NCBI GenBank assembly: GCA_946412015.1
Contig: CAMKGA010000004.1
Span: 3,858-67,857, forward strand
Length of the DNA stretch: 64,000 nt
Reading direction: 5' to 3'
From: an uncultured Bacillales bacterium
GTDB lineage: Bacteria; Bacillota_I; Bacilli_A; RF39; UBA660
The first letter of the stretch is position 1, and each line of letters starts with the position of its first letter. The notes under the pieces were generated by a model, which had not been told where the DNA came from, did no database searches, and worked only from the letters and a program-made list of their open reading frames with translations. This document shows positions 4,441-63,271 of this stretch, piece after piece. The position numbers and the translations under genes are program-made.

Positions 4441-4888
4441 AATAATATGCGTAGGTAAGATTAAAGAGAAATATTTAAAAGATGCAATTAGTGAATATCA
4501 AAAAAGATTAAGTAAATATACTAAGATAGAAATTATTGAACTTAATGATATTAGTAACTTAAATAAGAATGATATTATAGAAAAAGAAGGGATTAATATC
4601 CTTAATCATATTAAAGATAAAGATTATGTTATTACACTTGATATTAATGGTGTTAAAATGGATAGTGTTACATTTGCTGATACTTTATCTAAAACTTTAA
4701 TTATTAATTCTAATATTGTTTTTATAGTTGGTGGTTCATATGGGCTTAGTAATTCAGTTAGTAATAGAAGTAATTTCAAATTATCTTTTTCAGATTTAAC
4801 ATTTCCACATCAATTATTTAGAGTAATATTATTAGAGCAAATTTATAGGGCGTTTAAAATAAATAACAATGAAGAATATCATAAATAG
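4433..4888 (+). CDS. rlmH: 23S rRNA (pseudouridine1915-N3)-methyltransferase RlmH (SPOUT)
   Basis: MIKIICVGKIKEKY... is the typical RlmH start; ~150 aa. Start chosen at ATG 4433 with a gaggt RBS; the track ORF starts further upstream. Confidence 0.85.
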   Translation: MIKIICVGKIKEKYLKDAISEYQKRLSKYTKIEIIELNDISNLNKNDIIEKEGINILNHIKDKDYVITLDINGVKMDSVTFADTLSKTLIINSNIVFIVGGSYGLSNSVSNRSNFKLSFSDLTFPHQLFRVILLEQIYRAFKINNNEEYHK

Positions 4889-4991
4889 GTATTCTTTTTT
4901 AGTTTTCAATTAATTTTCATTTTATGATGATATAATTTTATTGATAAAATAATTATTTTGTATTAGAATATATTTTGCGGATGGGTGATTT

Positions 4992-6329
4992 ATGAAAGAT
5001 GTAATTGAATATTTATTAAAATTACTTAATGATAGTGATTATATTGTTACTGCAATTTCTGGTGGTCCAGATTCGATGTGTTTGTTAGATATACTTATTA
5101 AGGTAAGAAAATCGAAAAAAGTTAATATTGTAGTTGCACATGTAAACCACAATGTAAGAGTTGCAGAAAGTGAGCTTGAAAAAGTACAAGTTGAGAATTA
5201 TTGTAAAGATAACAACTTAATATTTGAGTATATGAAAATAGAAAAATATGAAAATACCAATTTTCATGATTATGCTAGAAGTGTAAGATACAACTTCTTT
5301 AATAAATTAGTAAAAAAATACAACGCTAAATATTTAATGACTGCACACCATGGTGATGATTTAATGGAAACTGTTTTAATGAGAATAGTGAGAGGATCAA
5401 GTTTGTCTGGTTATGCAGGATTTAATAAAGAAAGCAAGTTAAAAGATTATAAAATAATAAGACCATTAATTACAAAAACAAAGTTAGAAATACAAAATTA
5501 TATGGACAGTAATAATTTATGGTATGCAATTGATAAATCCAATTTAAAAGATGTTTACACACGTAATAGATATAGAAAGTATATATTGCCAAAACTTAAG
5601 GATGAAAATGAGAATGTTCATTTAAAGTTTTTAAAGTTTTCAGAAAAAATAAGTGAAGTTAGTAACTTTTTAGAAAAATATACTAATAAAGTATATGATG
5701 AGTTAATTAAAGATAAAAAGATTAATATAAAGTCATTATTAAAAGAAGATAAGATAGTTATTGACAATGTTTTGTCAAAATATTTGTATAGTTTTTATAA
5801 AAATAATATTCATTTGATTAATGATATAAATATTGAAACAATATATAATTGTATGAATAACAAAAAATCTAGTTTATCGATAGACTTGCCAGGTAATTTT
5901 AGATTTATTAAATCATATAACTTAGGATATATTATGTCTGATGAGAATAAAACAATATATAAATATAAACTAAAAGATAATCTAAGTATAAAAGGGTATG
6001 GAACTATAAAAAAAATAGAATCATCAAAAGAAACTGATAATAATATATTATATTTAGATAGTAATGATATTGCTTTACCACTATATGTTAGATGCAGAAA
6101 AATAGGTGATAAGATGCATGTTAAAAACATGAAAGAATTAAAAAAGGTAAAAAATATTTTTATTGATTGTAAGATACCTATAGAATTAAGAGATACATAT
6201 CCAATTGTAGTAGATAGTAATGATAATATACTATGGATACCGGGTTTAAAAAAATCGCAATTTGATAGGAAAAATAGTACAAAGTATGATATAATACTTA
6301 AGTATGAGCAAGAAAGGATGTTTTTATGA
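4992..6329 (+). CDS. tilS: tRNA(Ile)-lysidine synthetase
   Basis: PP-loop SGGPDSM motif near the N-terminus. Directly upstream of ftsH, as is usual. Confidence 0.85.
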   Translation: MKDVIEYLLKLLNDSDYIVTAISGGPDSMCLLDILIKVRKSKKVNIVVAHVNHNVRVAESELEKVQVENYCKDNNLIFEYMKIEKYENTNFHDYARSVRYNFFNKLVKKYNAKYLMTAHHGDDLMETVLMRIVRGSSLSGYAGFNKESKLKDYKIIRPLITKTKLEIQNYMDSNNLWYAIDKSNLKDVYTRNRYRKYILPKLKDENENVHLKFLKFSEKISEVSNFLEKYTNKVYDELIKDKKINIKSLLKEDKIVIDNVLSKYLYSFYKNNIHLINDINIETIYNCMNNKKSSLSIDLPGNFRFIKSYNLGYIMSDENKTIYKYKLKDNLSIKGYGTIKKIESSKETDNNILYLDSNDIALPLYVRCRKIGDKMHVKNMKELKKVKNIFIDCKIPIELRDTYPIVVDSNDNILWIPGLKKSQFDRKNSTKYDIILKYEQERMFL

Positions 6330-15837: not shown

Positions 15838-15926
15838 GCCTGAGTGGCGAAATTGGTAGACGCACAGGACTTAAAATCCTGCGGGAGTCAAATCCCGTGC
15901 CGGTTCAAGTCCGGCCTTAGGCACCA
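15838..15926 (+). tRNA. tRNA-Leu (anticodon TAA)
   Basis: Cloverleaf with long variable arm, anticodon loop cttaaaa, acceptor gcctgag/cttaggc, 3' CCA encoded. Confidence 0.85.
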
Positions 15927-15933
15927 TTATATT

Positions 15934-16024
15934 GGAGAAATACCCAAGTCTGGTTGAAGGGACTGGTCTTGAAAACCAGCAGGTCGGAAACGGCGCGGGG
16001 GTTCGAATCCCTCTTTCTCCGCCA
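15934..16024 (+). tRNA. tRNA-Ser (anticodon TGA)
   Basis: Long variable arm, anticodon loop cttgaaa, T-loop gttcgaatc, CCA end. Confidence 0.85.
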
Positions 16025-16039
16025 CTAATATTTTAATAT

Positions 16040-16116
<77 letters not shown>

Positions 16117-16121
16117 ATAAT

Positions 16122-16197
16122 GGTCCCGTGGTGTAGCGGTTATCACGTCTGCCTGTCACGCAGAAGATCGCGAGTTCGATTCTCGTCGGGACCGCCA
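16122..16197 (+). tRNA. tRNA-Asp (anticodon GTC)
   Basis: tgcctgtcacgcag anticodon arm is identical to Firmicute tRNA-Asp; CCA end. Confidence 0.8.
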
Positions 16198-16207
16198 TTA
16201 TTTTTTT

Positions 16208-16283
16208 GGCTCTATAGCTCAGTCGGTAGAGCACAGGACTGAAAATCCTGGTGTCGGTGGTTCAATTCCACCTGGAGCCACCA
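16208..16283 (+). tRNA. tRNA-Phe (anticodon GAA)
   Basis: Anticodon loop ctgaaaa, gctcagtcggtagagc D-arm, CCA end. Confidence 0.85.
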
Positions 16284-16296
16284 TAGAAATAATATA

Positions 16297-16314
16297 GCTG
16301 GCATGCCAGCTTTT
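16297..16314 (+). terminator. intra-array hairpin terminator after tRNA-Phe
   Basis: Perfect palindrome agctggcatgccagct followed by tttt. Confidence 0.45.
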
Positions 16315-16377
16315 AAAAAAGACAAATATTGACTTATTTTAAAAAAAGTGATAACATTAATGATGTCTCGGGGATAC

Positions 16378-16454
16378 GCGCTCGTAGCTCAGCTGGATAG
16401 AGTGTTTGGCTACGAACCAAAAGGTCAGGGGTTCGAATCCCTTCGAGCGCACCA
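16378..16454 (+). tRNA. tRNA-Arg (anticodon ACG)
   Basis: Acceptor gcgctcg/cgagcgc, anticodon loop ctacgaa, CCA end. Confidence 0.85.
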
Positions 16455-16460
16455 TATTAT

Positions 16461-16537
16461 CGGGAAATGGCTCAACTTGGTAGAGCACTTGGTTTGGGAC
16501 CAAGGGGTTGCAGGTTCAAATCCTGTTTTCCCGACCA
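16461..16537 (+). tRNA. tRNA-Pro (anticodon TGG)
   Basis: Acceptor cgggaaa/tttcccg, anticodon loop tttggga, CCA end. Its 3' end is the attachment site of the adjacent island. Confidence 0.85.
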
Positions 16538-16612: not shown

Positions 16613-17701
16613 TTATTTGTTTTGTTTCATTTGATTCAAGATGTTGACCGCTTTATCTTCATCTTTAGGAATCATATGAGAATAGGTATTGAGTGTCATA
16701 TTGATATCTGAATGTCCTAAACGTTCGGAAATAACTGTTATAGGGACATTCATTGATAAAAGTAAGGATGCATGACTATGTCTGAAGTCGTGTATTCTTA
16801 TTTTTTTGACCTTAGCTATATCACAATACTTATTCTTCTTTCTACCAATTGTTGATGGTGCTAATGGATTTAATCCACCAAATATAAACCAATTATCATT
16901 GAAATCTACACATTGTTGATAATATTTCTTTAAAAGATTAAGTTTATTAATTAATTCATTATCTAGTTTTACTTTTCTGATACTTTGACTAGTTTTAGGT
17001 GTATTAATAATATGTTTGTTATCAACCATTTCTTTAGAGATAGTTTTATTTATGTCTAAATATCCATCTTTAAAATCATTCCAGTTAAGAGCTAGTGCTT
17101 CACCTTGCCTTAATCCAGTATAGTATAGTGTTTCAAATAAGAATTTATATACTAAATCATCAACACATTTAATAAACTTTTGATATTCTTCTATTGTCCA
17201 AAAATCAACATTTTTAACTAACTCTGTTTTTCTTTTGAAATTACCAGTTAGTGTGGCTACATTTGTTTTTAGTCCATAAAACCTAATAGCATAATTTAAG
17301 ATATTAACCATTGCTCCATGCAAACTAGAATTGTATTTATGTTTAAAACCTTTTTTCTCAATTTCAATTTGCCATTTTAAATAAACACTATTAGTTATTT
17401 TATTAAGTTTATAGTTTTCAAAATATGGTAGTATATGATTTTTAAATCTACTCTCAACTGATCTATATGATTGAGTCTTTAATCTTAATTCTTTATAATT
17501 AGCATATTCTTTCCATAAATCATTAAAAGTCATATTAGAGAAATTAAACTTATCTCCCATTTTAAAATCATATTCAGCTTGTTGAGCTTCCTTTTTGGTA
17601 TTAAATCCTTTTCTCTCAAACTGTTTTCTATTTCCATATACATCATCACAATAGGTTCTAAACTTCCATTTCTTTGTTCTCTTATCTTGATATACCGGCA
17701 T
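16613..17701 (-). CDS. int: tyrosine-type site-specific integrase
   Basis: 362 aa; C-terminal catalytic region ...HDFRHSHASLLL...LGHSDINMTLNTYSHM carries the R-H-R-Y box residues; immediately adjacent to the tRNA. Confidence 0.9.
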   Translation of the reverse strand: MPVYQDKRTKKWKFRTYCDDVYGNRKQFERKGFNTKKEAQQAEYDFKMGDKFNFSNMTFNDLWKEYANYKELRLKTQSYRSVESRFKNHILPYFENYKLNKITNSVYLKWQIEIEKKGFKHKYNSSLHGAMVNILNYAIRFYGLKTNVATLTGNFKRKTELVKNVDFWTIEEYQKFIKCVDDLVYKFLFETLYYTGLRQGEALALNWNDFKDGYLDINKTISKEMVDNKHIINTPKTSQSIRKVKLDNELINKLNLLKKYYQQCVDFNDNWFIFGGLNPLAPSTIGRKKNKYCDIAKVKKIRIHDFRHSHASLLLSMNVPITVISERLGHSDINMTLNTYSHMIPKDEDKAVNILNQMKQNK

Positions 17702-17969
17702 ATTTTAAAGTCCTATTATTTAATTTAACTTCTGTATCTGCCATGCTAATAATATAATCTAAATCAAGACCAAGATATTCAATTACTTTTTTAGTAGGTA
17801 CAAGTATTGTTTTACCACTAGGAAGTTGTTTACCATTTTTAACAATTTCATCGGCTATTACTTTTCTGATTTTAATCGCACTGTTTCTTCCGCAATTAGC
17901 AATTAAAGCAATTTCTTTAATACTTGCCCATGGTTTTGATATAATTTTATATAATTCTAAATTGGACAT
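17682..17969 (-). CDS. small excisionase/DNA-binding (Xis-like) protein
   Basis: ~95 aa ORF upstream of and overlapping int, with a strong RBS aaaggaggtgaagat; helix-turn-helix-like segment. Confidence 0.4.
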   Translation of the reverse strand: MSNLELYKIISKPWASIKEIALIANCGRNSAIKIRKVIADEIVKNGKQLPSGKTILVPTKKVIEYLGLDLDYIISMADTEVKLNNRTLKYAGISR

Positions 17970-40292: not shown

Positions 40293-40962
40293 AAAAAATG
40301 ATAATATTAGAAAAAATGACGTAAAAAAATTAAAAGTGTTAGTTAATAACAATAATGAATTGCCAACAATTAGCATTGAAGGTAATGAGATAAAAAAGCA
40401 GGTTAGAAAGAGCATTTCTAGTATTATAGGTAGCAATATTTTTCATTTAGAACAAGTATATACTATGGATTATAAAAGTGATATAGATATAATCTATTTA
40501 GGTGTGACAAATATTGATAATATAAGTGAATTAAAAGAAGATTATAAACTTGTAGATTTTGAAATTAAAGATAATAGCTTAATTATTTTAGATAATAAAG
40601 AATATGAATATAAAACTATTGAATTAGAAGATAACAATAATATTGAATATATACATGATATAAAAATAAAAGATGAGCAAGTTAAGAGAACATTAATGAA
40701 TTTATTAATAAGTTATAAGCGTATTAGAAATAATATTGATAGTACTGATATTATATTTAAGTTTATGGGTTCTAGTTTCACTTTAGAAGATGTTAGAATT
40801 GTATATGAATTAATAAAAGATTGTAGTGTAGATAAGTCTAATTTTAGAAAAAAAATTATTAAATATTGTGAAAAAGTTGATTCTACCACAAATGAAAAAA
40901 ACGGATATAGGCCAAGTCAAAGATATAAATTTAAACCTTTAAAAGGAGATGTATGGTTATGA
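40249..40962 (+). CDS. NrtR-like regulator (degenerate Nudix N-domain + C-terminal winged-helix)
   Basis: The C-terminal SFTLEDVRIVYELIKD...DKSNFRKKIIKY...GYRPSQRYKFKP matches the NrtR winged-helix domain pattern. Next to NAD/nucleoside salvage genes. Confidence 0.45.
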   Translation: MQINLVSCIFVLDSEKNDNIRKNDVKKLKVLVNNNNELPTISIEGNEIKKQVRKSISSIIGSNIFHLEQVYTMDYKSDIDIIYLGVTNIDNISELKEDYKLVDFEIKDNSLIILDNKEYEYKTIELEDNNNIEYIHDIKIKDEQVKRTLMNLLISYKRIRNNIDSTDIIFKFMGSSFTLEDVRIVYELIKDCSVDKSNFRKKIIKYCEKVDSTTNEKNGYRPSQRYKFKPLKGDVWL

Positions 40963-41534
40963 TTTTAGCAACAAATAATAAAGGCAAATTAGAAGAAATA
41001 AGAAAAATATTAACAGATTATAAGATATATTCTTTAAAAGATAAAAACATAAATGTCGATGTTGAAGAAGATAAAGATTCATTTTTAGGTAATGCAATGA
41101 AGAAAGCAAAAGAAATATATGAAATTTCTCATGAAGAAACTATTGCTGATGATTCTGGATTATGTATTAATTGTTTAGATGGTTTTCCTGGAGTTATGAC
41201 ACATAGATTTTTAGGCGATGATGCTACTGATAGAATGAGAAATGAGTATTTAATCAATGAAGTAAATAAATATGAAGATAGAAGTGCTCAAGTAGTATGC
41301 AATCTAGTTTACTATGATGGAGAAAAAGAAATAGTTGGTGAAGGAGTACTGAATGGATTTATTTCTACAGAATGTAGAGGAAATAATGGCTTTGGATTTG
41401 ATGAAATATTTGAACTGCCAAATGGGTTAACTCTAGCAGAACTTTCCTTTGAAGAAAAGAATAGAATTAGTGCTCGTAGTATAGCTATAAATGCTTTAAA
41501 AAAGAAATTAATTAAATATAAAAGCAATAAATAG
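40953..41534 (+). CDS. rdgB: non-canonical purine NTP pyrophosphatase (RdgB/Ham1, dITP/XTPase)
   Basis: MILATNNKGKLEEI start and Ham1 family motifs, 193 aa. Confidence 0.85.
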   Translation: MVMILATNNKGKLEEIRKILTDYKIYSLKDKNINVDVEEDKDSFLGNAMKKAKEIYEISHEETIADDSGLCINCLDGFPGVMTHRFLGDDATDRMRNEYLINEVNKYEDRSAQVVCNLVYYDGEKEIVGEGVLNGFISTECRGNNGFGFDEIFELPNGLTLAELSFEEKNRISARSIAINALKKKLIKYKSNK

Positions 41535-41685: not shown

Positions 41686-41982
41686 ATGGCAAATATAGTT
41701 ATTGATGCAGGACATGGAGGTACTGATTCTGGTGCTGTTGGAAATGGTATTATCGAAAAAGATTTAACACTTAAAATATCTAAATATATGGCTGATAGAT
41801 TAAAGCAACTTGGAGCTAATGTTACTTTGACAAGAGATACTGATGAAACATTAACACCCGATGAAAGGGTAAAAAGAGTATTAAATGCATATGGTAACAA
41901 TAAAGATGTTTTAGTTATTTCTAATCACATAAATGCTGGAGGTCCTGATACAAGTAATTATGAATGGTTAAATTTAATATAA
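41686..41982 (+). pseudogene. N-acetylmuramoyl-L-alanine amidase (Amidase_3, CwlD/endolysin-like) N-terminal fragment only
   Basis: MANIVIDAGHGGTDSGAVG...LVISNHINAGG is the first ~85 aa of Amidase_3. The ORF then diverges and stops (98 aa versus ~180-aa domain), so it is truncated at ~41945. Confidence 0.55.
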
Positions 41983-42064: not shown

Positions 42065-42613
42065 ATGGATTTAAAAATAATATATTATGTACATGGTACA
42101 ACATTTGATAATGCATCTAAAAAATGTAGTGGTTGGAAACAAGTAGAATTGAATGATTTAGGAAAAGAACAAGCAATTAATTTAGGAAAAAATACACCAT
42201 ATAAATTCGATGTATTATTTACATCAGACTTGATAAGAGCAAAGGAATCGGCAAAATTAGCTTTTCCAAAGTTTCAAGTAATTGAAGACAAAAGGCTTAG
42301 AGAATGTAATTATGGAGATTTAGATGGTGAAGATAAAAATCAAATTATATATGAAGACCATATAAATAATCCATTTCCAAACGGAGAATCTTTAAAAGAT
42401 GTAGAAAAAAGACTTAGAGATTTTTTTAAGTATGTAAAAGAAAATTACAAAGATAAAACTATAGGAATTATAGCTCATAGAGCCCCTCAATTAGCAATCG
42501 AGGTTATTACAAAGAATATATCTTGGGAAGAAGCTAATGCTAATGATTGGAGAAAAACAGGTGCTTGGCAGCCAGGTTGGGAATATTGTTTAAAAAAATC
42601 TGATTTATTTTAA
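42065..42613 (+). CDS. histidine phosphatase family protein (phosphoglycerate mutase-like)
   Basis: The start (IYYVHGTTFDNASKKCSGW) and the overall histidine-phosphatase (branch 1) pattern; ATG 42065 with RBS agaggtga. Confidence 0.65.
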   Translation: MDLKIIYYVHGTTFDNASKKCSGWKQVELNDLGKEQAINLGKNTPYKFDVLFTSDLIRAKESAKLAFPKFQVIEDKRLRECNYGDLDGEDKNQIIYEDHINNPFPNGESLKDVEKRLRDFFKYVKENYKDKTIGIIAHRAPQLAIEVITKNISWEEANANDWRKTGAWQPGWEYCLKKSDLF

Positions 42614-44263
42614 GAAATTTTTTCCTTTTCTCCCGTATGGGTTACGAACTCTATTATCTTTATATTTAAAAGTATGGTTATCTAGAATATTGTATTTAAG
42701 TTTAATAATTATATTTCTATCTTTGTCTGCTTCAATTCTTTCTATTAGAGCAAATAATAAATTTTTATTAGGGTTGTTTAAGTTTAACAACTTTTTTATT
42801 TTGTCTTCATAGTTTAGATATTTATCAGTATTATCTTTTTCATTTTGAATTTCATTATTAATATCTTCTAAAATATTATTTAAATCTTTTAATTTATCTT
42901 CATATGGCTTTGATAATATTTTATATTGATTAGGCGTAATATTACCTTCTAAACGGTCTTTATATATAGTTTGAATAGTGTCTAATAATTTGTTTTGTTC
43001 TTTAATAATACCTTCTTTTCTTTTTTTATAATCGTTAGAATTATTCTTAGTTCTTTTAATAACTTCTTCATTTAATTCTTTTATGTTTAAATTAAGAAAT
43101 AATTTAGATAGTATTTTTTTTAGTTCTTTTAAAACTAATTCTTCAAAATAATCATATGAAAAAAAGTGCGATGTGCATAATTTTCTAACTGGGTCTCTAG
43201 CATACTTATTACAATTAATACACCAGTAGTCTTGCTTTTTTCTATAAAGTACACTAAGTCTATTTCCACATTCATGACAAAATAATAATCCTTCTAATAA
43301 TCTTTCAGGTCTTTTTCTTTTAGAATAAGATCTATTTTTATTATTTGTTTTTTTATTAATTAACATAAATGTATTTTTGTCTACTAATGCTTCATGTGTA
43401 CCTTCAACAATTATCCATAATCTTTTATCTAAAGTAATTCTTTTTTTCGATTTATAATTTATATTTGTCTGAGTACGTTGTACCATGTCACCAGTATACA
43501 TTCTGTTTTGTAATATATTATGAATTGAATGTATTGTCCATTTATTATTATTTTTATTTCGATTAGAAATAGGCAAGTTTTTATAATCTGCAGGAGTTGG
43601 TGCACCCATATTAGTTAATTTAGTTGCTATTTCACTAATTTTTATGTTATTTGCTCTTAGTTCAAATATTATTTTTACATATTTAGCTACTTGAGGATCA
43701 GGTATCAAATGTCCTTTATCATTTGGGTCTCTCATATATCCATAACAAGGTTTGCTACCTATAAATTTACCATCTTTTCGTTTTAAATCTAATACATTTC
43801 TAATTTTTAATGAGTTTTGTTTACTATAGTAATCATTGCACGCAATTATAAATGTTGATGAATCGTTACTAGCTTGATCCTTTATGCTATCGTAATTTTC
43901 TACAATCGATATAAATCTTACTTTGTTTTCTGGGAAATACTTTTCAATGTAATATCCTGTCATTACATGGTCTCTACCTAATCTTGATAAATCTTTTACA
44001 ATAACTAAATTAATTGTTTTGTTTTTTATATCTTCTATCATTTTATTAAATCCAGGTCTATTGAAATTAGTGCCAGAATACCCATCATCTATATATTCTT
44101 TAATTAATTTAAAGCTGTTCTTTTTACAGTAAGTACGCAGTATATTTTTTTGATTTATTACGCTTTCACTATCTAATTCGTGCTTCTTGTCTTTATCTTC
44201 TTGTGATAATCTTATATAAATACCAGCGTTATAATCTGAGTCTAGTAAGCAGCTATAATTCAT
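42605..44263 (-). CDS. large serine recombinase (TnpX/TndX/SpoIVCA-like)
   Basis: N-terminal resolvase catalytic domain YNAGIYIRLSQED...DDGYSGTNFNRPGF...VIVKDLSRLGRD, recombinase domain, and a C-terminal zinc-ribbon (CHECG...C) with coiled-coil, ~550 aa. Confidence 0.9.
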   Translation of the reverse strand: MNYSCLLDSDYNAGIYIRLSQEDKDKKHELDSESVINQKNILRTYCKKNSFKLIKEYIDDGYSGTNFNRPGFNKMIEDIKNKTINLVIVKDLSRLGRDHVMTGYYIEKYFPENKVRFISIVENYDSIKDQASNDSSTFIIACNDYYSKQNSLKIRNVLDLKRKDGKFIGSKPCYGYMRDPNDKGHLIPDPQVAKYVKIIFELRANNIKISEIATKLTNMGAPTPADYKNLPISNRNKNNNKWTIHSIHNILQNRMYTGDMVQRTQTNINYKSKKRITLDKRLWIIVEGTHEALVDKNTFMLINKKTNNKNRSYSKRKRPERLLEGLLFCHECGNRLSVLYRKKQDYWCINCNKYARDPVRKLCTSHFFSYDYFEELVLKELKKILSKLFLNLNIKELNEEVIKRTKNNSNDYKKRKEGIIKEQNKLLDTIQTIYKDRLEGNITPNQYKILSKPYEDKLKDLNNILEDINNEIQNEKDNTDKYLNYEDKIKKLLNLNNPNKNLLFALIERIEADKDRNIIIKLKYNILDNHTFKYKDNRVRNPYGRKGKNFLK

Positions 44264-44540
44264 ATTTATTACCTTCCTTATCATACTATCTTTTAGTAAT
44301 TAATTCTTTTATCAAATAGTTAATAATGATTTCAGTAAATAATTTTTCCTTATTTTTATTCATATTTTAATTTATGATTTATATTTTTATATTATTCTTT
44401 TTTCTTCATAATTGGTCTATATTTACACAACTACAGTTTGTCTAAAAATGTTGTTTTTTATATAGATTTATGGTATACTCGAATAGTAAAGTAGTAAATC
44501 ATAAAAAACCTTTACGATGTATCATAAAGGAGGTGGAAAA

Positions 44541-47393: not shown

Positions 47394-50300
47394 ATGAAAT
47401 TAAAGAAGCATAAAAAAATTTTGATTCTTTTTGCTTTTGTTGTTGCTTTCTATGCCATTGTTAGTGGGACTTTTTCTATTTATAGAGAAAAAAAAGGGGA
47501 TAAGATTGATTTAAGTATTTTGGATGCTTCTGGAATGGTTACAGTAAATTTTAAGGCTAATGGTGGAGTAATTGATTCTGAAGATGAGACAAAAACTGTT
47601 CAATCAGGTACGACTATTGGACAATTACCAGAAGCAACAAGAGATGATTATAATTTTGATGGATGGTATACTGAACCAACGGGTGGAGAAAAAATTGATG
47701 AGAATACTGTGGTAACGGGAACAACTGTTGATTATTATGCACATTGGATTAAAATAGTATGTAAAAAGGCCGTAACTGGTACATTACACAGTGAAACTTG
47801 TGCTCAAGGTGGAGCGTGTTCAGGATCTGGCGGTGGTTATCACGCTAATGATACTATCTATTATGGAACAATTCCAAGTTCTATTAGCCCTATTGTCGGA
47901 GATGCTTATGATTGTGATGTAAACGATGATGATACATGGGATCCTCAGACTGAAAGATTTTATTATGTTAGACATTATGGGACAACAGATGAATTTGAAA
48001 ATTCTGTATTGGTTCATTATACAAGTTTTGATGATTTAGGGCAAATGGATTCATCTCCTTCAAGAACCAATTATTTATACGGAGATGCTAGTGATTATTT
48101 ACCTACATCTGCAACTTGGGATAATCCAGCTCTTATTGAAATGAATGGTAATATTACTAGATTTATTGCACGAGAGGATTTAGCTGCAGCTTGTGGTTCT
48201 GAATCAGGAGGAAATAAATTTGAAAATTGCCGCTTCTATTTAGAAAATAGTAGGTATCAATCTAGTAGTTTAGGTAGAGCAGGTATATGGTTAGCTGCCG
48301 AAGGAAATACACATTATAGAATTCATACAGAACAACTATCTGTTTCAGTTGCTGATACAGATAGTAAAAATACAGTTAGACCAACTATTCAAATTCCGTC
48401 TAATAGAATAGAAGATTTTAACAAGAAGAAAAAATATACTATAAATCTTGATTCTCAGGATGGAATGCCAAGCGAGTATTCTTTTGAGAAATGGGAAGGT
48501 GAAAGATTAGACACACTTCCAATCCCAACAAAATTTGGTTATATTTTTTCTGGATGGTATACAGACAATGAAGATTATACAACTGAAATTACACAAAATA
48601 CTATTGTAACAGGTAATATTAATGGATATGCTAAATGGGTACCTAAACAAGTGCCATTAGATTATGTATTCTATATACCAGGAGAGTGTTCTTTTACATC
48701 AACAGGTATTGTAAATGGTGAAAATGGAGATTGTATTAGTACAATTAATCCAACAGGATCAAATATTGATTATACAGGAAGTTCTTTATCTTCAAAAAAA
48801 TACATAGATACTCAAGTAGGTTTATATAATTCAATAAATCACGATAAAGATTTTGAAGTGGGATTTACTATCGTAAGTTATAATTCAGCTGATAATATAA
48901 ATAGAGCAACATTAGTTCATTCAAAAGCAGAAATAGTAAATAGATATCCAGGATTTACGTTTAGAAAAAAAGATGCTACAAATAATTTTTTACTACAGTC
49001 TAGAGAAACACAAAGTAGTAATGCTGAGTATATAATTGCATCCTCATCTGTACAAAATGTAAAAATATATAGAATAAGTAATTCTATTTACTATAGTATA
49101 AATGATGGTGAAAAAACTAAATTAAATGATTTAAATCAATACAATCCAGTTTTTGATTTAACAACTTGGTTTGGTGGTGCTCCAAAAGATGAATCAGCAC
49201 TTGTTGCGGATAGATTATTTATAGGTACATTAAGTAATATGTATATCAAACTATCTCCAACAGCAAAAGTAACATTTGATCCTAATTATACTGGAGAACC
49301 ATCATTTGAACAAGATGCTAATGTTGGTAAAAAAATTGGTGATTTACCAACAATTACTAGACCGGGATATGCATTTATTGGTTGGTATACCGATCCAGTT
49401 AATGGTTCTAAGATTAACTCAAATACTATAATTGATGGAGATATTAGATTTTATGCTCATTGGACTGATGGTGCTACAGTAACACTTCATGCAAATGGTG
49501 GAAGTGTAAGTCCAAATACAATAACAGTTTATCATGGACATGAAGTAGGAAATCTTCCGACACCAGAGAGAACAGGATATACTTTTGATGGTTGGTATCA
49601 AGATGTGAATCTTACAATTCCTGCTACATCAGAAACAGTAATAAATCAAAATACAGATTTCTACGCAAAATGGATTGAAAATGTTACTATTACATTTGAT
49701 GCTGATGGTGGAGAAGTAAGTCCAACTAGTAAAACACAAGCTTCTGGACTTGCAATTGGAGATTTGCCAATACCATCAAAAATAGGTTATGACTTTGTAG
49801 GTTGGTATACCGATAATACATATACAACAGAAGTAACTTCTTCGACAGTGTTTAATACAACAACAACAATTATTGCAAAATGGGAAGAATTAGATGATAT
49901 AACTGTTAATTTTGATGCAGATGGAGGAAGTGTAAGTCCAACTAGTGTTACATTCCCACCTGGATCAGCAATAGGTGAATTACCAATTCCGGAAAAAACA
50001 GGATATAATTTTGTAGGTTGGTATACGGATAATACATATACAACAGAAGTAACATCTTCTACAACATTTAATACAACAACAACAATTATTGCAAGGTGGG
50101 TAGATGAGCAATATGTAGCTTGTGTAGGATTGAATTGTTATCTAACATTAGATGAAGCTATAGCTGCGGTACCAACTACTAAAGTAAAAACTAAAGTTAA
50201 AATCTTAAAAGATATTACGACTACAGATACTATAAATATAACAAGTAGCAAATGGGTTGAATTAGATATTGGAAATAATACTATTAGTGCTACTAGCGGA

Positions 50301-53114
50301 ACGTTCTCTTTGTTTACAAATACAGGTAAATTAGATATTATTAATGGTAAATTATATAGTTCAGGTGGATATATTATTGAAAATAAATCTACTGCAACTG
50401 TAAATATTTATGATGGAGAGCTAACTTATAATAAATCAAGTGATGGTGAGAAAAAAGTAATTGAAATTAAAGGTGGAACAGTTAATATTTACGGTGGAAC
50501 ACTTTCTTGTAACTCTAAAGCTGCAGTAATTAATGTTAATGCAGGAGCGTCATTAAATGTATATGGTGGAAAAATTAAGGGTACTAATACATTTAAAGGA
50601 CAAGCAGTTTATAACAATGGTGGAATAGTAACAATAAGTGGAACAGCTTATTTAGAGAATAACTCTCAGACTGGTACTGCAAATGGTAGAGCAGCTCTTC
50701 ATAATAATGCTGGAACAATTAATATACTTGGTGGAACAATTATAAGTAATAATAATTCAGCTGTAAAAAATAGTGATACAATGACAATTGGTACTAATGA
50801 TGATCCAATAGATAATACAAACCCAGTTATGCAAGGCTATAATTATGGTTTAGAAATAGCTAGTGGGAAAACAGTAACAGTTTACGATGGTATTTTCAAA
50901 GGTAATGTAAATACTAATAATAAAGCAATTAATGATGAATCAGGCGTAATTGTTAATAATGCAACAATTGTTCATACCAATGAAACAATAGATAATATTC
51001 AATATGATGTAGCTTATCTAGAAGATATTTCAGTTAATATTACAGTAAACTTTAATAAAAATGGTGGGGATACGGTTGAGTATAATTCAAAAACATTAAC
51101 TGAAATAGGTCCTATTGGAAACCTGCCTACTGCAACTAAAGCTAATTCAGAATTCTTAGGTTGGTTTACTGCAGGAGTTGGTGGAGAAAGAGTACTTTCA
51201 ACAACAGAAGTTGATGATGATGTTACTTATTTCGCACATTATACAAACACAAAAACAGTATGTAGACCAGCGACTGTTCTACATTCATCTGGATCAACAG
51301 AATTTGGACAAATTCCAAGTAGTCCATCATTAAGTGCTGGAGACGCTTTTGATTGTGATGTTAATGGTGACGGCACATATGATGCAACAAATGAAAGATT
51401 TTATTATTTAAATAAAACAAGTGATGGCAAAGCAGTATTAATATTCTATAATAATACATCACAAGTTAATAATAATGTATCTCCAGTTTGTAGTGCAACT
51501 GCTGTTAGTTATGCTCCTACATTTACAGAAGGTCCAAATACAGCTATTTCTGAGCTTCCTACGATAGCTCAGTGGCCAAATGTAAGTTTATATACAGAGC
51601 CAAGAACTATCACAGATGAGTCTGGAAATACTGTTTTAAGTAATTATGTATATAGTGGTTCAGCTGCAAGATTTGCAACTCTTGATGAGATTAAAGCAGC
51701 AACTAATTCTAATTTAAATGAAACTGCAAATGAGTTAGAAGATTACACATTCTTACTTGAAAATACAATTTCATATGGAAGCGATTGTAGATCAAATTAT
51801 TGGTTAGAAACAGTTAATTCAAATGGTGGAGCTGAAAGAATTAATGGTGCTGTTACTGCTAAGAGTCTTGGCCATGCTTCTGGTAATTCAGGAGTAAGAC
51901 CTGTAATCGAAGTCCCATTTGATTCAATTGAAGGAGCAATAAATATTGTTGAATTTGATACAATTCCAGAAGCAATGAGAACATATTTTAACAATGTTAA
52001 TTCATGGAATACTGGACAGGATGATACAAATTATAGTAGTTTTAATGATGCTATGACAGCAAATCTTAATAATTATGATTGTGCATATTATAAAAATGAT
52101 AATGTTACAACACAATATGGTAGTGTCTATTGTGATCAGCCAAATAAGTATAATACAGGTATTACAGGTAATATTAATGTATATGAATATAACGAGTTAA
52201 CAGGATTAAGATCAAATAATACAGTAAACTATGTATTTAATGATAATGGTAAGCTATATAATTTTATTCCTGGTAAAACATATTATTGGGAATCAGCTAG
52301 TGATAATACTAAAAAAGGTTTTGTAAGACCTACTGGTGAAAGACGACTTATTACTATTCCTGGTGTTAATAGACAGACGCGTAATGTAAGAGATTTAGGT
52401 GGCCTTCCTGTTGATACAAATGGTGATGGTGTTATTGATGGAAAACTTAAATATCAAAAGCTATATCGTGGTGAAAAAATTTGGGGATTAAATAATGATG
52501 GTACAACAAGAGCACAATTTGAAAAGTTAGGTATTTATAATGAATATGACCTTCGAACTCCAGGTTCAGATATTGTTATATCAGAAGAAGATAAATTGGC
52601 AAATTATAATCAAAACGAAATAGTTCATTATAAGATTGATCATACTGAATTTGGATCTCCTGCAACAGAAACACGTTTCAATGGTAAAAGTTATTATCAG
52701 TTATCTAGAGATGCTGCAATAGATGTAATGAAAAAAGTAGTAGCTGGTAATGATGATTATTCTATTTATTTACATTGTCGTATAGGAGCTGATAGAACAG
52801 GTACTCTTGCTTATTTATTAGAAGGTGTTTTAGGAGTGCCAACGGAATATAGATATCAAGATTATGAATTAACAACTTTCTTCGGATTAAGAGAAAGAAC
52901 AAGGTATTATTATATGAAAGATTCTACTAATGATATGTATAAATTCATATATTTAAAAAAAGCAATTCGTCATGCAACTTTAGGAAATGATGAGATTACT
53001 GGAGAAGAAAATGTAATTGATTGGTTCTTATTAGAAGGTAATTCCACAAGTGAATGTAGTGATATAACTGCACTAATAAATCAATTTAGAGCTAAGATGA
53101 TTGACTATAATTAA
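47394..53114 (+). CDS. giant (1906 aa) surface/secreted protein: SipW-type signal, Listeria-Bacteroides (Flg_new) repeats, parallel beta-helix, duplicated VRPVI modules, C-terminal CX5R tyrosine-phosphatase-like domain
   Basis: N-terminal FAFVVAFYAIVSGTFSIY signal. Seven G[YF].F.GW[YF]T..........W repeats, Gly-rich GG..IYGG beta-helix repeats, and a C-terminal HCRIGADRTG (CX5R P-loop). Two ~220-aa modules end in ..YW..G....VRP[VT]I..P. Confidence 0.7.
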   Translation: MKLKKHKKILILFAFVVAFYAIVSGTFSIYREKKGDKIDLSILDASGMVTVNFKANGGVIDSEDETKTVQSGTTIGQLPEATRDDYNFDGWYTEPTGGEKIDENTVVTGTTVDYYAHWIKIVCKKAVTGTLHSETCAQGGACSGSGGGYHANDTIYYGTIPSSISPIVGDAYDCDVNDDDTWDPQTERFYYVRHYGTTDEFENSVLVHYTSFDDLGQMDSSPSRTNYLYGDASDYLPTSATWDNPALIEMNGNITRFIAREDLAAACGSESGGNKFENCRFYLENSRYQSSSLGRAGIWLAAEGNTHYRIHTEQLSVSVADTDSKNTVRPTIQIPSNRIEDFNKKKKYTINLDSQDGMPSEYSFEKWEGERLDTLPIPTKFGYIFSGWYTDNEDYTTEITQNTIVTGNINGYAKWVPKQVPLDYVFYIPGECSFTSTGIVNGENGDCISTINPTGSNIDYTGSSLSSKKYIDTQVGLYNSINHDKDFEVGFTIVSYNSADNINRATLVHSKAEIVNRYPGFTFRKKDATNNFLLQSRETQSSNAEYIIASSSVQNVKIYRISNSIYYSINDGEKTKLNDLNQYNPVFDLTTWFGGAPKDESALVADRLFIGTLSNMYIKLSPTAKVTFDPNYTGEPSFEQDANVGKKIGDLPTITRPGYAFIGWYTDPVNGSKINSNTIIDGDIRFYAHWTDGATVTLHANGGSVSPNTITVYHGHEVGNLPTPERTGYTFDGWYQDVNLTIPATSETVINQNTDFYAKWIENVTITFDADGGEVSPTSKTQASGLAIGDLPIPSKIGYDFVGWYTDNTYTTEVTSSTVFNTTTTIIAKWEELDDITVNFDADGGSVSPTSVTFPPGSAIGELPIPEKTGYNFVGWYTDNTYTTEVTSSTTFNTTTTIIARWVDEQYVACVGLNCYLTLDEAIAAVPTTKVKTKVKILKDITTTDTINITSSKWVELDIGNNTISATSGTFSLFTNTGKLDIINGKLYSSGGYIIENKSTATVNIYDGELTYNKSSDGEKKVIEIKGGTVNIYGGTLSCNSKAAVINVNAGASLNVYGGKIKGTNTFKGQAVYNNGGIVTISGTAYLENNSQTGTANGRAALHNNAGTINILGGTIISNNNSAVKNSDTMTIGTNDDPIDNTNPVMQGYNYGLEIASGKTVTVYDGIFKGNVNTNNKAINDESGVIVNNATIVHTNETIDNIQYDVAYLEDISVNITVNFNKNGGDTVEYNSKTLTEIGPIGNLPTATKANSEFLGWFTAGVGGERVLSTTEVDDDVTYFAHYTNTKTVCRPATVLHSSGSTEFGQIPSSPSLSAGDAFDCDVNGDGTYDATNERFYYLNKTSDGKAVLIFYNNTSQVNNNVSPVCSATAVSYAPTFTEGPNTAISELPTIAQWPNVSLYTEPRTITDESGNTVLSNYVYSGSAARFATLDEIKAATNSNLNETANELEDYTFLLENTISYGSDCRSNYWLETVNSNGGAERINGAVTAKSLGHASGNSGVRPVIEVPFDSIEGAINIVEFDTIPEAMRTYFNNVNSWNTGQDDTNYSSFNDAMTANLNNYDCAYYKNDNVTTQYGSVYCDQPNKYNTGITGNINVYEYNELTGLRSNNTVNYVFNDNGKLYNFIPGKTYYWESASDNTKKGFVRPTGERRLITIPGVNRQTRNVRDLGGLPVDTNGDGVIDGKLKYQKLYRGEKIWGLNNDGTTRAQFEKLGIYNEYDLRTPGSDIVISEEDKLANYNQNEIVHYKIDHTEFGSPATETRFNGKSYYQLSRDAAIDVMKKVVAGNDDYSIYLHCRIGADRTGTLAYLLEGVLGVPTEYRYQDYELTTFFGLRERTRYYYMKDSTNDMYKFIYLKKAIRHATLGNDEITGEENVIDWFLLEGNSTSECSDITALINQFRAKMIDYN
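49684..50103 (+). repeat. tandem near-identical duplication of a 216-bp (72-codon) Flg_new repeat unit inside the giant gene
   Basis: 49800..49878 and 50016..50094 are ~92% identical at DNA level (ggttggtataccgataatacatatacaacagaagtaac...); the flanking parts of the units are also similar. Confidence 0.6.
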
Positions 53115-53120
53115 AAAAAT

Positions 53121-53160
53121 TAGTAGTGTTGGTAATTATATTTACCAGCACTATTTATTT
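53121..53160 (+). terminator. putative rho-independent terminator after giant gene
   Basis: Hairpin agtgttggtaa-ttatat-ttaccagcact (one G-U pair) followed by a T-rich run. Confidence 0.4.
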
Positions 53161-53204
53161 TGAAATCTTGATAAGTTTAGTAAAATATGATATTATTCTA
53201 CTAG

Positions 53205-60450: not shown

Positions 60451-60718
60451 AAGAGCAAGAAGAGTTAGAGAGAATATTAGAGAGTTTTAAAGAAAATGAG
60501 GAAGATATAAAATGACTAAGACACTCATAAACTTAAATGAGGTGGCTTATGTTTAATATAATAGAAACTTTCAAAGATGATTCTCCTAATTTTAATGAAC
60601 TGGTAACTGAATTTATAAAAAGTATGGTAAATAGAGACTGATATCGTGGGCCAAGTTAAATTTATGTGGTATAATTTAATTGGCTTTAGTTGTTATACAA
60701 CGGAAAAGGATAGTAAGC

Positions 60719-62299
60719 TTGTATAACACTTTAAAACAGATGCCAGATTACTATAAAGCAGGAATTTATATAAGATTATCAGAAGCTGATGAAGGCAAGT
60801 CTTACGAATCTGAAAGTGAGAGTGTCCTTAACCAAAGAAATATACTAATGAATTTTATTAAGGAAAAAGGATTTATTTTTGTAGATGAATATGTAGATGA
60901 TGGATATTCTGGCACTACTTTTGATAGACCAGGATTTCAAAGACTAATTGAAGATATTAAAGCTAAAAGAATTAATCTTGTAATAGTAAAAGACTTATCA
61001 AGATTAGGTAGAGATCATATTTTAACAGGTTATTATGTTGAAACTTTCTTCCCTGAAAATGGAATAAGATTTATTTCTATGCTAGAGGGGTATGATAATG
61101 CTGTAAATCAAGCAAGCAATGATTCATCAACATTTATCTTTGCTTGTAACGATTTTTATAGTAAACAAAATTCAGTTAAAATACGTAATGTTTTAAATGA
61201 TAAAAGAAGAGATGGTAAGTTTATAGGTAGTGTTCCAAGTTATGGATATTTAAGAGATCCAGAAGATAAGGGACACTTAATACCAGACCCAGATTATGCG
61301 TGGGTAGTAAAAAAGATATTTAATATGGCTTATAGTGGAGTAGGAGTTTCTGAAATAACTACTTATTTGAATGACAATAACATTAAAACACCTAGTAGTT
61401 TAAAAAGAAAAAATCCTAATTCAAAAGCTAAATATAATCCTATGTGGACTATTTCTTCAGTTAAAAAGATATTAAAAAATCAAATGTATGTAGGTGATAT
61501 GGTACAAAGTGTACAAACTAAGGTATCATATAAATCTAATAAGAAAAAAACATTACCTAAAAGTAACTGGGATATTGTTAAAAATACTCATGAACCATTA
61601 GTAGATAGATTTATATTTGAAAGTGTTCAAAATAATGTTAAAAGAACAAATGTTTCTAATGTTACTAAAAGAGAAAAAAGATTATTTGAAAATTTATTAT
61701 ATTGTAAAGAATGTGGTAATACTTTAACAGTATCATATAGAAAACAACATAACTATTGGACCATTAATTGTAATAGATATTCAAGAGATCCAAAAAGAAG
61801 AATGTGTGAACCTCATTTTAGCCCGTATGATAAATTAGAAGAAGCATTACTTGAAGTTATAAAAAATACTTGTAAAAAGTATTTAAAAAATTTAGATATA
61901 TCAGAAATATCTAAAAATATTAATAAAAAAGATAATAGTGATATTAATAATCAGATAAATGATTTAAGAAAACAAGAAAAAGACTTAATTAGTAAATTAG
62001 ATATGCTATATCAAGATAAATTTAATGGAATAGTATCTGAAGAAATGTATTTACGAATATCTAGAGAAACAGAGAATTCTTTAATTAGAACAAGAGAAAA
62101 AATCCAAAGTCTACAAGATATAAAAGAAGAGAAGAAAGTTAATAAATCAGAAATAAAAGACTACGAAGATAAAATAAGAAAATTAATTGATATTGATAAT
62201 TCTTCAAGAGAGTTAATACAAGCCTTAATCGATAAAATTGTTATAGATAAAGATAGAAATATAGAAATTATCTATAAATTTAGTATACTTAATAATTAG
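60719..62299 (+). CDS. large serine recombinase (second copy, TnpX/TndX-like)
   Basis: YKAGIYIRLSEAD...DDGYSGTTFDRPGF...VIVKDLSRLGRD is ~70% identical to the 42605..44263 protein in the catalytic domain; C-terminal zinc ribbon and coiled-coil. Probable TTG start at 60719 (RBS aaaagga); alternative ATG at 60740. Confidence 0.9.
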   Translation: MYNTLKQMPDYYKAGIYIRLSEADEGKSYESESESVLNQRNILMNFIKEKGFIFVDEYVDDGYSGTTFDRPGFQRLIEDIKAKRINLVIVKDLSRLGRDHILTGYYVETFFPENGIRFISMLEGYDNAVNQASNDSSTFIFACNDFYSKQNSVKIRNVLNDKRRDGKFIGSVPSYGYLRDPEDKGHLIPDPDYAWVVKKIFNMAYSGVGVSEITTYLNDNNIKTPSSLKRKNPNSKAKYNPMWTISSVKKILKNQMYVGDMVQSVQTKVSYKSNKKKTLPKSNWDIVKNTHEPLVDRFIFESVQNNVKRTNVSNVTKREKRLFENLLYCKECGNTLTVSYRKQHNYWTINCNRYSRDPKRRMCEPHFSPYDKLEEALLEVIKNTCKKYLKNLDISEISKNINKKDNSDINNQINDLRKQEKDLISKLDMLYQDKFNGIVSEEMYLRISRETENSLIRTREKIQSLQDIKEEKKVNKSEIKDYEDKIRKLIDIDNSSRELIQALIDKIVIDKDRNIEIIYKFSILNN

Positions 62300-62413: not shown

Positions 62414-63271
62414 ATGAATCAAGATAAAATGCATTTAGTAAATAAAATATTTAATAATGAAACAATTAGAACTGTTTGGGACAAGGAGCAAGAAAAATAT
62501 TTTATAAGTGTTGTTGACATAGTTGGAGTACTTGCCGATAGCACTGAACCTAGAAAGTATTGGAATTGGTTAAAAAGTAAGTTAAAAAAAGAAGAAAATT
62601 TTGAAACGTCTAGTATTACTAGACAGTTGAAATTGAAAGCCCAAGATGGTAAATATCGTATGACTGATGTTGTTGATATTGAAGGAATGTTTAGAATTAT
62701 TGAATCAGTTCCTAGCAAGAATGCAGAGCCTATAAAACAATGGCTAGCTAAACTAGGTAGTGAGAGAATAAATGAAACATTTGATCCTTCATTAGCAGCA
62801 CAAAGAGCGATAGACTTATATAGAGCTAAAGGTTATGATGAAAAATGGATTGCAAAAAGAATTAAAGGTATTCAGGATAGAAAACAACTTACTGATTTAT
62901 GGAAAGATGGTGGAATAACTGAATCAAAGGAATATGCAATTCTAACAAATGAAATTTATAAAGAATGGTCTGGCATGACTGCTAAAGAGTACAAATCATT
63001 TAAAGGACTTAGGAAAGAATCACTCCGAGATAATATGACTGATGTTGAAGTAGCACTAGCAGATTTAGGAGAAATAGCAACTAGAGAAATTGCCAAAAAG
63101 AAAAATCCAAAGGGTTTAAATGAAAATATAGATGTAGCAAGGCGTGGCGGTAAAATTGCTGGTAATGCAAGAAAAGAATTAGAACACGAAATAGGCGAAA
63201 GTGTAGTTACTAATGCAAATGCTTTAAACTATCAATATGTAGATGAAAGAGAAATTGAAATGAAAAATTAA
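62414..63271 (+). CDS. Bro-N domain protein (phage antirepressor / DinD-like)
   Basis: N-terminal ...IRTVWDKEQEKYFISVVDIVGVLADSTEPRKYWNWLK fits the Bro-N pattern; RBS aaaggagg. Confidence 0.65.
   Translation: MNQDKMHLVNKIFNNETIRTVWDKEQEKYFISVVDIVGVLADSTEPRKYWNWLKSKLKKEENFETSSITRQLKLKAQDGKYRMTDVVDIEGMFRIIESVPSKNAEPIKQWLAKLGSERINETFDPSLAAQRAIDLYRAKGYDEKWIAKRIKGIQDRKQLTDLWKDGGITESKEYAILTNEIYKEWSGMTAKEYKSFKGLRKESLRDNMTDVEVALADLGEIATREIAKKKNPKGLNENIDVARRGGKIAGNARKELEHEIGESVVTNANALNYQYVDEREIEMKN

Follow-up and report, generated by a model that had tools for sequence, protein, structure and literature searches.

What is the role of an exported protein of 1906 residues that starts like its two small neighbours and ends in a cysteine phosphatase? 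The question is raised by a 64,000-nucleotide stretch of DNA from an uncultured Bacillales bacterium (Bacilli_A; RF39; UBA660; GenBank assembly GCA_946412015.1, contig CAMKGA010000004.1, positions 3,858 to 67,857 of the forward strand), hereafter the window, in which the gene for this protein, called here the giant gene, lies downstream of a SipW-class signal peptidase gene. The answer that we favour, with a probability of roughly 0.55, is that the protein could be a tethered giant stalk displaying a cysteine phosphatase at its far end, as an accessory part of a conserved surface cassette.

The giant gene is the fifth of a tight co-directional set with intergenic gaps of -1 to 96 nt, and we regard it as the large accessory component of a conserved cell-surface cassette composed of genes A and B, the SipW-class peptidase, gene C and the giant gene, often followed by a gene F (Table 1). 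The order A-B-peptidase-C-giant is identical in every related locus with enough upstream sequence. These include loci whose giant proteins share with ours 74% (L001 and L002), 42% (L003), 38% (L004) or, over a local match, about 40% (L005, from a spore-former whose giant protein contains Big_2 domains) identity, and the order is found as well in L008-L011, L016 and L017. The genes flanking the cassette vary from locus to locus, and its bearers are metagenome-assembled genomes (MAGs) of uncultured rumen and gut Erysipelotrichaceae, 'Bacilli' and 'Bacillales'.

The cassette peptidase scores 72.1 bits against TIGR02228, whose curated cut-off is 51.85, but falls below the equivalog of Bacillus SipW (NF046067), with 35 bits where 190 are needed; judged by these profiles it is of the endoplasmic reticulum (ER)/archaeal class and no orthologue of Bacillus SipW. 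Its motifs GSME, THRI and GDAN are present in all orthologues. Gene A opens the cassette in every locus, and an alternative ATG upstream, at 44517, would extend its product to 190 residues. A and C encode homologous products (hhalign probability 98.4%, E 5e-15), while B shows a weak similarity to A (E 0.004, probability 8%). B contains PASTA domains (E 2.6e-9), and in distant loci only its C-terminal domain is conserved.

The small neighbours had been called TasA-like in an earlier reading of the window (the sequence-only reading), a label for which sequence comparison gave no support. Despite hundreds of homologues, A and C belong to no Pfam family and carry no informative name in their sources (the 300 homologues of A have no Pfam domain and are named 'hypothetical protein' only), PDB profile searches with families A, B and C returned nothing, and hhalign of A and B against TasA aligned 13-17 residues without significance. 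The AlphaFold2 (AF2) model of C has a predicted local distance difference test score (pLDDT) of 83.7 and consists of a helix (residues 2-30), a low-confidence linker (31-41) and nine strands. Foldseek relates it weakly to CBM2 domains, to the chaperone-usher pilins CfaB, FimG and PapH, to BslA and, at E 0.019, to the TasA fibre; as modelled, the fold is a generic Ig-like sandwich.

The giant protein shares its signal with these small proteins. All three start with a Lys-rich stretch and about 17 hydrophobic residues, followed by T-x-[ASG]/[IL]-[YM]-[RK], where the slash marks the predicted cut: GTYA/IYR in A, HTFA/LMR in C and GTFS/IYR in the giant protein. Among homologues, a loose regular expression for this signal matched 86 of 120 for the giant protein and 79 of 87 for C, as well as all A proteins; in 220 other open reading frames (ORFs) from the fetched loci it was found almost only in A and C. 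The small residues at -3 and -1 are compatible with a signal-peptidase site, and by this rule and by analogy with TasA the protein is predicted to be cleaved before Ile29. Within the first 130 residues, IYR and the following xLS[IV]LDP (K-I-D-L-S-I-L-D-[PA]) rank with the best-conserved columns in 67 diverse homologues, and the segment that holds them, IYREKKGDKIDLSILDASG (residues 29-47), is a candidate donor strand by the same analogy. The signal of TasA, GGTWA/AFND with the cut after residue 27, resembles GT[FY][AS]/IYR by eye (GTWA/AFN); hhalign of family A with TasA paired just GTYAIYR and GTWAAFN, at equal residue numbers, without significance. The TasA donor strand comprises residues 28-38, including F29 and I32 (PMC9674648).

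The shared motif, the presence of a peptidase passing TIGR02228 and the gene order conserved in distant relatives make the giant protein a probable third substrate of the cassette peptidase, and on these grounds it is very probably exported and processed together with its small neighbours. Thus the earlier proposal of a third SipW substrate holds as far as motif, peptidase and synteny go, but not as a member of the known signal family: neither A, C nor the giant N-terminus matches the SipW-cognate signal NCBIfam TIGR04088, even at E<=10.

At the opposite end, Pfam places Y_phosphatase3 (PF13350) at residues 1661-1836, with 66.6 bits against a gathering score of 22.2 and covering model positions 5-178 of 240. 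The AF2 model of residues 1580-1906, built on a 37-sequence alignment, is of high confidence (pLDDT 90.6, predicted template modelling score 0.90) and shows a beta-sandwich followed by an alpha/beta phosphatase core. All 50 top Foldseek matches in the PDB are cysteine phosphatases, led by a Clostridioides difficile protein tyrosine phosphatase (PTP; 8DHI/8DHJ, E 1e-6) and Mycobacterium tuberculosis PtpB (1YWF, E 4e-5), with MTMR8, PTEN, an RNA-capping triphosphatase, DUSPs, Siw14 and PFA-DSP1 next; the profile search against PDB sequences likewise returned 8dhi (4e-13), PtpB (3e-7) and VHR (5e-4). The model therefore argues for a genuine PTP-fold domain, and the PTP P-loop and the likeness to Y_phosphatase3 that the sequence-only reading had proposed are borne out; the refuting outcome named there, neither PTP fold nor general-acid Asp, did not arise, and an Asp is retained. 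This residue, Asp1800, lies within the P-loop, the same place as the essential catalytic Asp of the MptpB family, which has the P-loop HCXXGKDR (Asp165 in MptpB) and no WPD loop (PMC3091653). Across the 37-sequence alignment the P-loop keeps its H, C, G, D, R, T and G without exception, HCxxG[ATS]DRTG occurs in 108 of the 120 best homologues, and all P-loops recovered among 133 representatives match HCxxGxDR[TA]G. In the subgroup of our protein an Arg directly follows the P-loop Cys (HCR...). A second candidate acid, Asp1749, sits in a loop aligning near Asp92 of VHR and is Asn in some subgroups. Taken together, sequence and model suggest that the cysteine phosphatase is apparently active. The PTP-like phytase family (PF14566) was not assigned, Pfam giving Y_phosphatase3 only.

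The body between these two ends is modular. Pfam confirms the seven Listeria-Bacteroides repeats seen earlier, as seven Flg_new stretches (E 1e-81). Their number ranges from 5 to 11 among orthologues, whose lengths differ in steps of about 72 residues, indicating that the copy number changes over evolutionary time. The tandem pair of repeats 5 and 6 had been read as a 216-bp unit duplicated at about 92% DNA identity, open to recent expansion or assembly collapse; neither the figure nor the two explanations stood up to measurement. The two units (49681-49888 and 49897-50104) reach 79% identity when compared ungapped and 77% when aligned globally, their longest common word is 28 nt, and Tandem Repeats Finder reported nothing relevant on the giant ORF, repeats 5 and 6 included, so that the idea of a recent duplication was dropped. 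Mis-assembly is of no concern either, an independent assembly containing a protein of equal length, 1906 residues, with 99% identity (P0001); on the opposite strand, no ORF of at least 80 residues overlaps the giant gene. The ORF is genuine.

The two duplicated modules of about 220 residues that had been noticed in the body are indeed homologous (BLASTP, 30% identity, E 1e-18), and at this identity they are, by sequence, true but old duplicates. Residues 418-623 have no Pfam match, and a PDB sequence search with them gave nothing meaningful. Of the Pfam families expected from the sequence-only reading, Flg_new and Y_phosphatase3 were recovered but Beta_helix was not, even at E<=1. The Gly-rich region concerned, which has no PDB sequence match, contains the motif [VILM]x[VIL]x[GDNS][GTEAK] ten times in residues 980-1190, at a spacing of roughly 20-30 residues, and from this periodicity a solenoid is possible. 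Searched in isolation at E<=1, the duplicated modules, the middle domain, the solenoid region, the linker and the N-terminus gave nothing usable in Pfam. The giant protein contains no adhesive-domain or anchor family of Pfam, and no LPXTG or other known anchor was detected.

Table 1. Coordinates of the cassette genes and of the parts of the giant gene in the window; a slash marks the predicted cut.
Feature	Coordinates	Strand	Description or basis
Gene A, small exported protein, 182 aa	44541..45089	+	Lys-rich N-terminus, hydrophobic segment, GTYA/IYR
Gene B, 408 aa	45186..46412	+	Membrane helix at the N-terminus; PASTA domains; conserved ~140-aa domain at the C-terminus (KIAPES...YLEWKW)
ER/archaeal-type (SipW-class) signal peptidase I, 149 aa	46412..46861	+	TIGR02228; Peptidase_S24/S26 also match
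Gene C, exported beta-sandwich protein (modelled), 158 aa	46884..47360	+	HTFA/LMR
Giant gene, 1906 aa	47394..53114	+	Uninterrupted ATG-initiated ORF, 1906 codons
Predicted signal peptide	47394..47477	+	Residues 1-28, ends SGTFS; predicted cleavage before IYR
Conserved N-terminal segment, candidate donor strand	47478..47534	+	Residues 29-47, IYREKKGDKIDLSILDASG
Flg_new repeat 1	47535..47753	+	Pfam
Duplicated module, copy 1	47751..48419	+	Residues 120-342, ends VRPTIQIP
Flg_new repeat 2	48432..48644	+	Pfam
~205-aa domain without family match	48645..49262	+	Residues 418-623
Flg_new repeats 3-6, tandem	49263..50105	+	Pfam; repeats 5 and 6 form the supposed 216-bp duplication
Gly/Asn/Thr-rich region, possible beta-solenoid	50106..51038	+	Periodic motif, ~8-10 short units
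Flg_new repeat 7	51039..51248	+	Pfam
Duplicated module, copy 2	51249..51935	+	Residues 1286-1514, ends VRPVIEVP
C-terminal module, small beta-sandwich packed on PTP-fold phosphatase domain	52131..53111	+	Residues 1580-1906, AF2 model
P-loop HCRIGADRTG	52773..52802	+	Residues 1794-1803; Cys1795, Asp1800, Arg1801
Terminator-like hairpin, 14-bp stem and T-run	53122..53155	+	8 nt past the giant gene stop codon
Gene F, 151 aa, one N-terminal membrane helix	53205..53660	+	3' of the giant gene, close relatives only

The sandwich-plus-phosphatase module is found far beyond the cassette. When 1.84 billion cluster representatives were searched with a profile of the module, 12,078 proteins matched at E<=1e-3, of which 4,490 reached E<=1e-10 and 520 reached E<=1e-30. 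A phosphatase fused to a surface protein had been called unusual, which these numbers contradict: 520 clusters at 50% identity bear the module, and of the best 150 representatives nearly all have it at their extreme C-terminus, in proteins of up to 3,294 residues. An N-terminus of the AIYR type is present in only about 19 of 78 full-length representatives, the remainder having ordinary signal peptides or N-terminal membrane helices. In a Saccharibacteria MAG with a guanine-plus-cytosine (GC) fraction of 0.48 (L012, 6888-12407), a protein of 1,839 residues combines the module, with the P-loop HCTHGADRTG, with an ordinary signal peptide. A further locus (L013, 1-15511) has a single ORF of at least 100 residues in 15.5 kb under genetic code 11, and tblastn matches the giant protein over 7 kb of it; a single ORF running off both ends, a different genetic code or frameshifts are the options. 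We found no paper on this cassette or protein family.

According to the reading that we favour, the giant protein would be exported through Sec and cut by the cassette peptidase within SGTFS/IYR, a site of the same T-x-[ASG]/[IL]-[YM]-[RK] form as in A and C, as motif and synteny suggest. Its new N-terminus could then serve as the tether, the strand IYR...K-I-D-L-S-I-L-D inserting into the beta-sandwich of A or C in the manner proposed for TapA, which would insert a strand into TasA (PMC9674648, PMC10151520). This is the weakest step, and attachment of the giant protein to a fibre is suggested by that analogy. B, which combines a membrane helix, PASTA domains that bind the wall and a C-terminal sandwich, might form the base. 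The body of about 1,500 residues, made of the seven Flg_new repeats, the two modules of about 225 residues, the domain of about 205 residues without family and the putative solenoid, would act as a stalk and provide probable binding modules; Flg_new has been treated as a stalk domain of fibrillar adhesins (PMC9210967). The distal C-terminus would present the beta-sandwich and a cysteine phosphatase of the MptpB/atypical-lipid-phosphatase lineage, with Cys1795 as the likely nucleophile, Arg1801 as the phosphate clamp and Asp1800 as the acid/base. Indeed, in nearly all of the best 150 representatives the module keeps its extreme C-terminal place whatever the type of N-terminal export or anchor. 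Outside the cell the enzyme may, at low confidence, hydrolyse phosphomonoesters, and inositol phosphates, phosphoinositide headgroups or other non-protein phosphoesters on digesta, host or neighbouring cells seem likelier targets than phosphotyrosine signalling proteins. A secreted soil relative, Pho16B, is a promiscuous phosphatase whose substrates include phytate, hydrolysed at about 30% of its best rate (PMC6409689).

Several observations weigh against this reading. The Foldseek matches have modest template modelling scores (0.37-0.50), in part an effect of the extra beta-sandwich contained in the model. The atypical lipid phosphatases have the signature HCXXGKDR[TA]G (PMC3091653, PMC6409689), whose Lys matters in MptpB for phosphoinositide binding (PMC3091653), but this position is Ala, Thr or Ser (once Val) in every family sequence seen; with the Asp invariant but the Lys never present, the domain appears from its sequence to be a relative rather than a member of these phosphatases. 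Moreover, most module-bearing relatives start with an ordinary signal peptide or a multi-helix N-terminus, and L012, the one case examined, has no peptidase cassette upstream of the module gene. These two facts imply that the phosphatase module does not depend on the fibre system; it seems rather to be a widespread terminal unit of giant surface proteins, for which the SipW-type cassette would be one of several routes of export or tethering. Finally, cleavage is predicted, and an uncleaved N-terminal membrane anchor would fit the signal data equally well.

In that last case the giant protein would stay in the membrane through its N-terminal segment, without any link to A or C, and the peptidase would serve the small proteins only, which we hold to be unlikely. 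The first 28 residues do form one Lys-rich hydrophobic helix that could be a signal anchor, many module-bearing relatives show clear N-terminal membrane helices in place of the motif, and the BsaA oligomers of Clostridium perfringens have been reported as membrane-anchored (bioRxiv 10.1101/2024.11.04.621531). It would nevertheless be hard to explain why the small -3/-1 residues and IYR are kept in the giant protein as in A and C, and the strict co-linearity of its gene with the peptidase also speaks for processing. The opposite orientation, with the N-terminus outward and the C-terminal module as an anchor on phosphate-containing envelope polymers or lipid-linked intermediates, which it perhaps turns over, appears improbable. 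The extreme C-terminus, where the module is nearly always found, is the usual place of an anchor in Gram-positive surface proteins, no LPXTG or equivalent was detected, and relatives with ordinary cleavable signal peptides have no other obvious tether. Yet hundreds of divergent sequences strictly keep the nucleophile Cys, the Asp and the Arg, which speaks for catalysis over binding, several relatives have N-terminal membrane helices that put the C-terminus distal, and the fold is unlike any known wall-binding domain.

The same residues bear on whether the phosphatase domain could be a catalytically dead binding module, a pseudophosphatase-type lectin for phosphorylated ligands. Loss of the lipid-phosphatase signature Lys and the replacement of Asp1749 by Asn in some subgroups would fit such a role, but the Cys, the P-loop Asp and the Arg are invariant, and Beresford et al. 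took loss of the Cys or Asp as the mark of inactivity, whereas both are retained here; we therefore give this idea little credence. Even less can be said for a contact-dependent or polymorphic-toxin-like effector with a toxic phosphatase end and gene F as its immunity gene. A giant repeat-rich protein whose C-terminal domain is enzymatic, a gene for a small membrane protein immediately downstream in close relatives and the proximity of the cassette to recombinases and defence genes in this genome would be expected of such a system. Its C-terminal domain should however vary from strain to strain, and here it is constant throughout the family, which makes a toxin very unlikely; more distant loci lack F or have it on the other strand, no markers of toxin cassettes were seen, and the polymorphic-toxin reading was rejected.

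A bolder version of the stalk model would make the cassette a SipW-dependent donor-strand pilus with polarity, in which B is the base, A (with C) the shaft and the giant protein a catalytic tip. B would accept the last strand, and the giant protein, donating its conserved N-terminal strand, would form the cap at the far end. We consider this speculative and doubtful. If true, this would be the first sortase-independent pilus of Gram-positive bacteria whose tip is dedicated to catalysis, and the sandwich-plus-phosphatase module would be a new class of distal working domains in giant proteins of gut Firmicutes and Saccharibacteria.

Among characterised systems, the closest is sipW-bsaA-bsaB-bsaC of C. 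perfringens and the next tapA-sipW-tasA of Bacillus subtilis. With the latter our cassette shares a signal that ends in T-x-A/ and continues with an aromatic residue (GTFS/IYRE here and GTWA/AFND in TasA). It further resembles this operon (PMC9674648, PMC10151520) in its dedicated ER-type signal peptidase and in a minor, larger protein with an N-terminus like that of the fibre subunit. In contrast, A and C (about 125-150 residues when mature) are far smaller than TasA and unrecognisable as Peptidase_M73/TasA, and the giant protein is about eight times as long as TapA and bears an enzyme domain. The C. perfringens operon encodes two small matrix proteins and a 70-kDa accessory, all with signal sequences (bioRxiv 10.1101/2024.11.04.621531). 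As in that operon (PMC7395162), a SipW-class peptidase is accompanied here by two small paralogous exported proteins and a much larger exported accessory, all of which carry the presumed signal of the peptidase. The accessory has 1906 residues (about 210 kDa) and a phosphatase end, whereas the Bsa accessory has 70 kDa and a vWA domain; the membrane/PASTA protein B is additional, and the gene order differs.

The phosphatase domain has Y_phosphatase3 in common with the atypical lipid phosphatases (MptpB, Listeria LipA, the C. difficile PTP 8DHI and Pho16B; PMC3091653, PMC6409689), which provide its best structural and profile matches, and shares with them a P-loop of the form HCxxGxDR[TA]G with the Asp inside and a sequence without WPD motif; several known members are secreted. 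It differs by Ala, Thr or Ser in place of the signature Lys, and by the packed beta-sandwich that precedes it at the end of a giant protein, whereas they are free enzymes of about 30 kDa. Compared with the Flg_new fibrillar adhesins described by Monzon & Bateman (PMC9210967), the giant protein is likewise very long, has tandem stalk domains whose copy number varies among orthologues, and places a functional domain at the end opposite the presumed tether. Its terminal domain is an enzyme fold and no known adhesive domain, and its tether is predicted to be N-terminal and of the SipW type, unlike their C-terminal sortase motif. Relative to all these systems, the novelty lies in unrecognisable small subunits, an extra PASTA protein and an accessory of about 210 kDa that is like a fibrillar adhesin and has an MptpB-like phosphatase end.

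The base composition of the giant gene follows from its product. The locally raised GC noted in the sequence-only reading is real, 0.313 in the gene against 0.26 in the window, but is no signal of foreign origin. GC at third codon positions (GC3) is 0.11, within the 0.09-0.18 spanned by the other 20 genes measured, and the surplus sits at second positions (GC2, 0.41), as expected from a composition rich in Gly, Thr, Ser and Ala. A foreign origin on the basis of GC was rejected; GC3 gives no sign of a recent import of the cassette, and plasmid and phage collections contained no near-identical DNA. Seven clustered tRNA genes (Leu, Ser, Met, Asp, Phe, Arg and Pro; 15838-16537, +) explain one GC peak in the window.

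The cassette is probably carried on, or was captured by, a serine-recombinase element in this genome, since it is bracketed by recombinases and, in L017, an amidase gene is split exactly around recombinase and cassette. The two large serine recombinases of the window (42605-44284, -; 60680-62299, +) are paralogous (49% identity, E 2e-177) and face outward; the stretch of about 16 kb between them holds the cassette, TnpV, T5orf172, an EcoRI-type methyltransferase, GmrSD, AAA_13 and an HTH_36/DnaD_N gene, and a Bro-N gene follows the second recombinase at 62414. Upstream of the first lies an N-terminal fragment, 98 residues, of an Amidase_3 gene (41686-41982, +), and the window lacks the C-terminal remainder. 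In L017 an 11.7-kb insert that comprises a recombinase and the whole cassette divides the same amidase-LysM gene (4847-5140 and 16894-17721), and in L016, L008 and L006 the cassette has no recombinase and is found upstream of an intact amidase-LysM gene. A Ham1-family gene is found near the cassette both in the window (40953-41534, upstream) and in L004 (12836-13390, directly downstream), which hints at a partly conserved chromosomal neighbourhood despite the mobile-element genes. Downstream of the giant gene, the position of the terminator-like hairpin is suggestive, although the scan as a whole found 2 hairpins against 1.7 expected from shuffles, no enrichment. Gene F, on the other strand in L003, has no family match; a promoter-like site of its own is seen at 53168-53196.

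Matrix fibres of the SipW/TasA type are understood in few model organisms, and their accessories, such as TapA, BsaC and CapP, are poorly explained. In the present cassette this part is taken by a giant modular protein that ends in an enzyme fold, and the recurrence of its cassette in many uncultured gut and rumen Firmicutes makes the role of accessory proteins on such fibres testable. The sandwich-plus-phosphatase module terminates the very large proteins of at least 520 clusters (50% identity), of which no member has been studied. In the anoxic gut, a cysteine phosphatase outside the cell could target phytate and other organophosphates, phospholipids of host or microbial surfaces, or phosphorylated glycans, each of which bears on phosphorus nutrition or colonisation. 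Judged from this family, the MptpB-type fold, known as that of a 'virulence' phosphatase, appears to be widely used by commensals at the cell surface.

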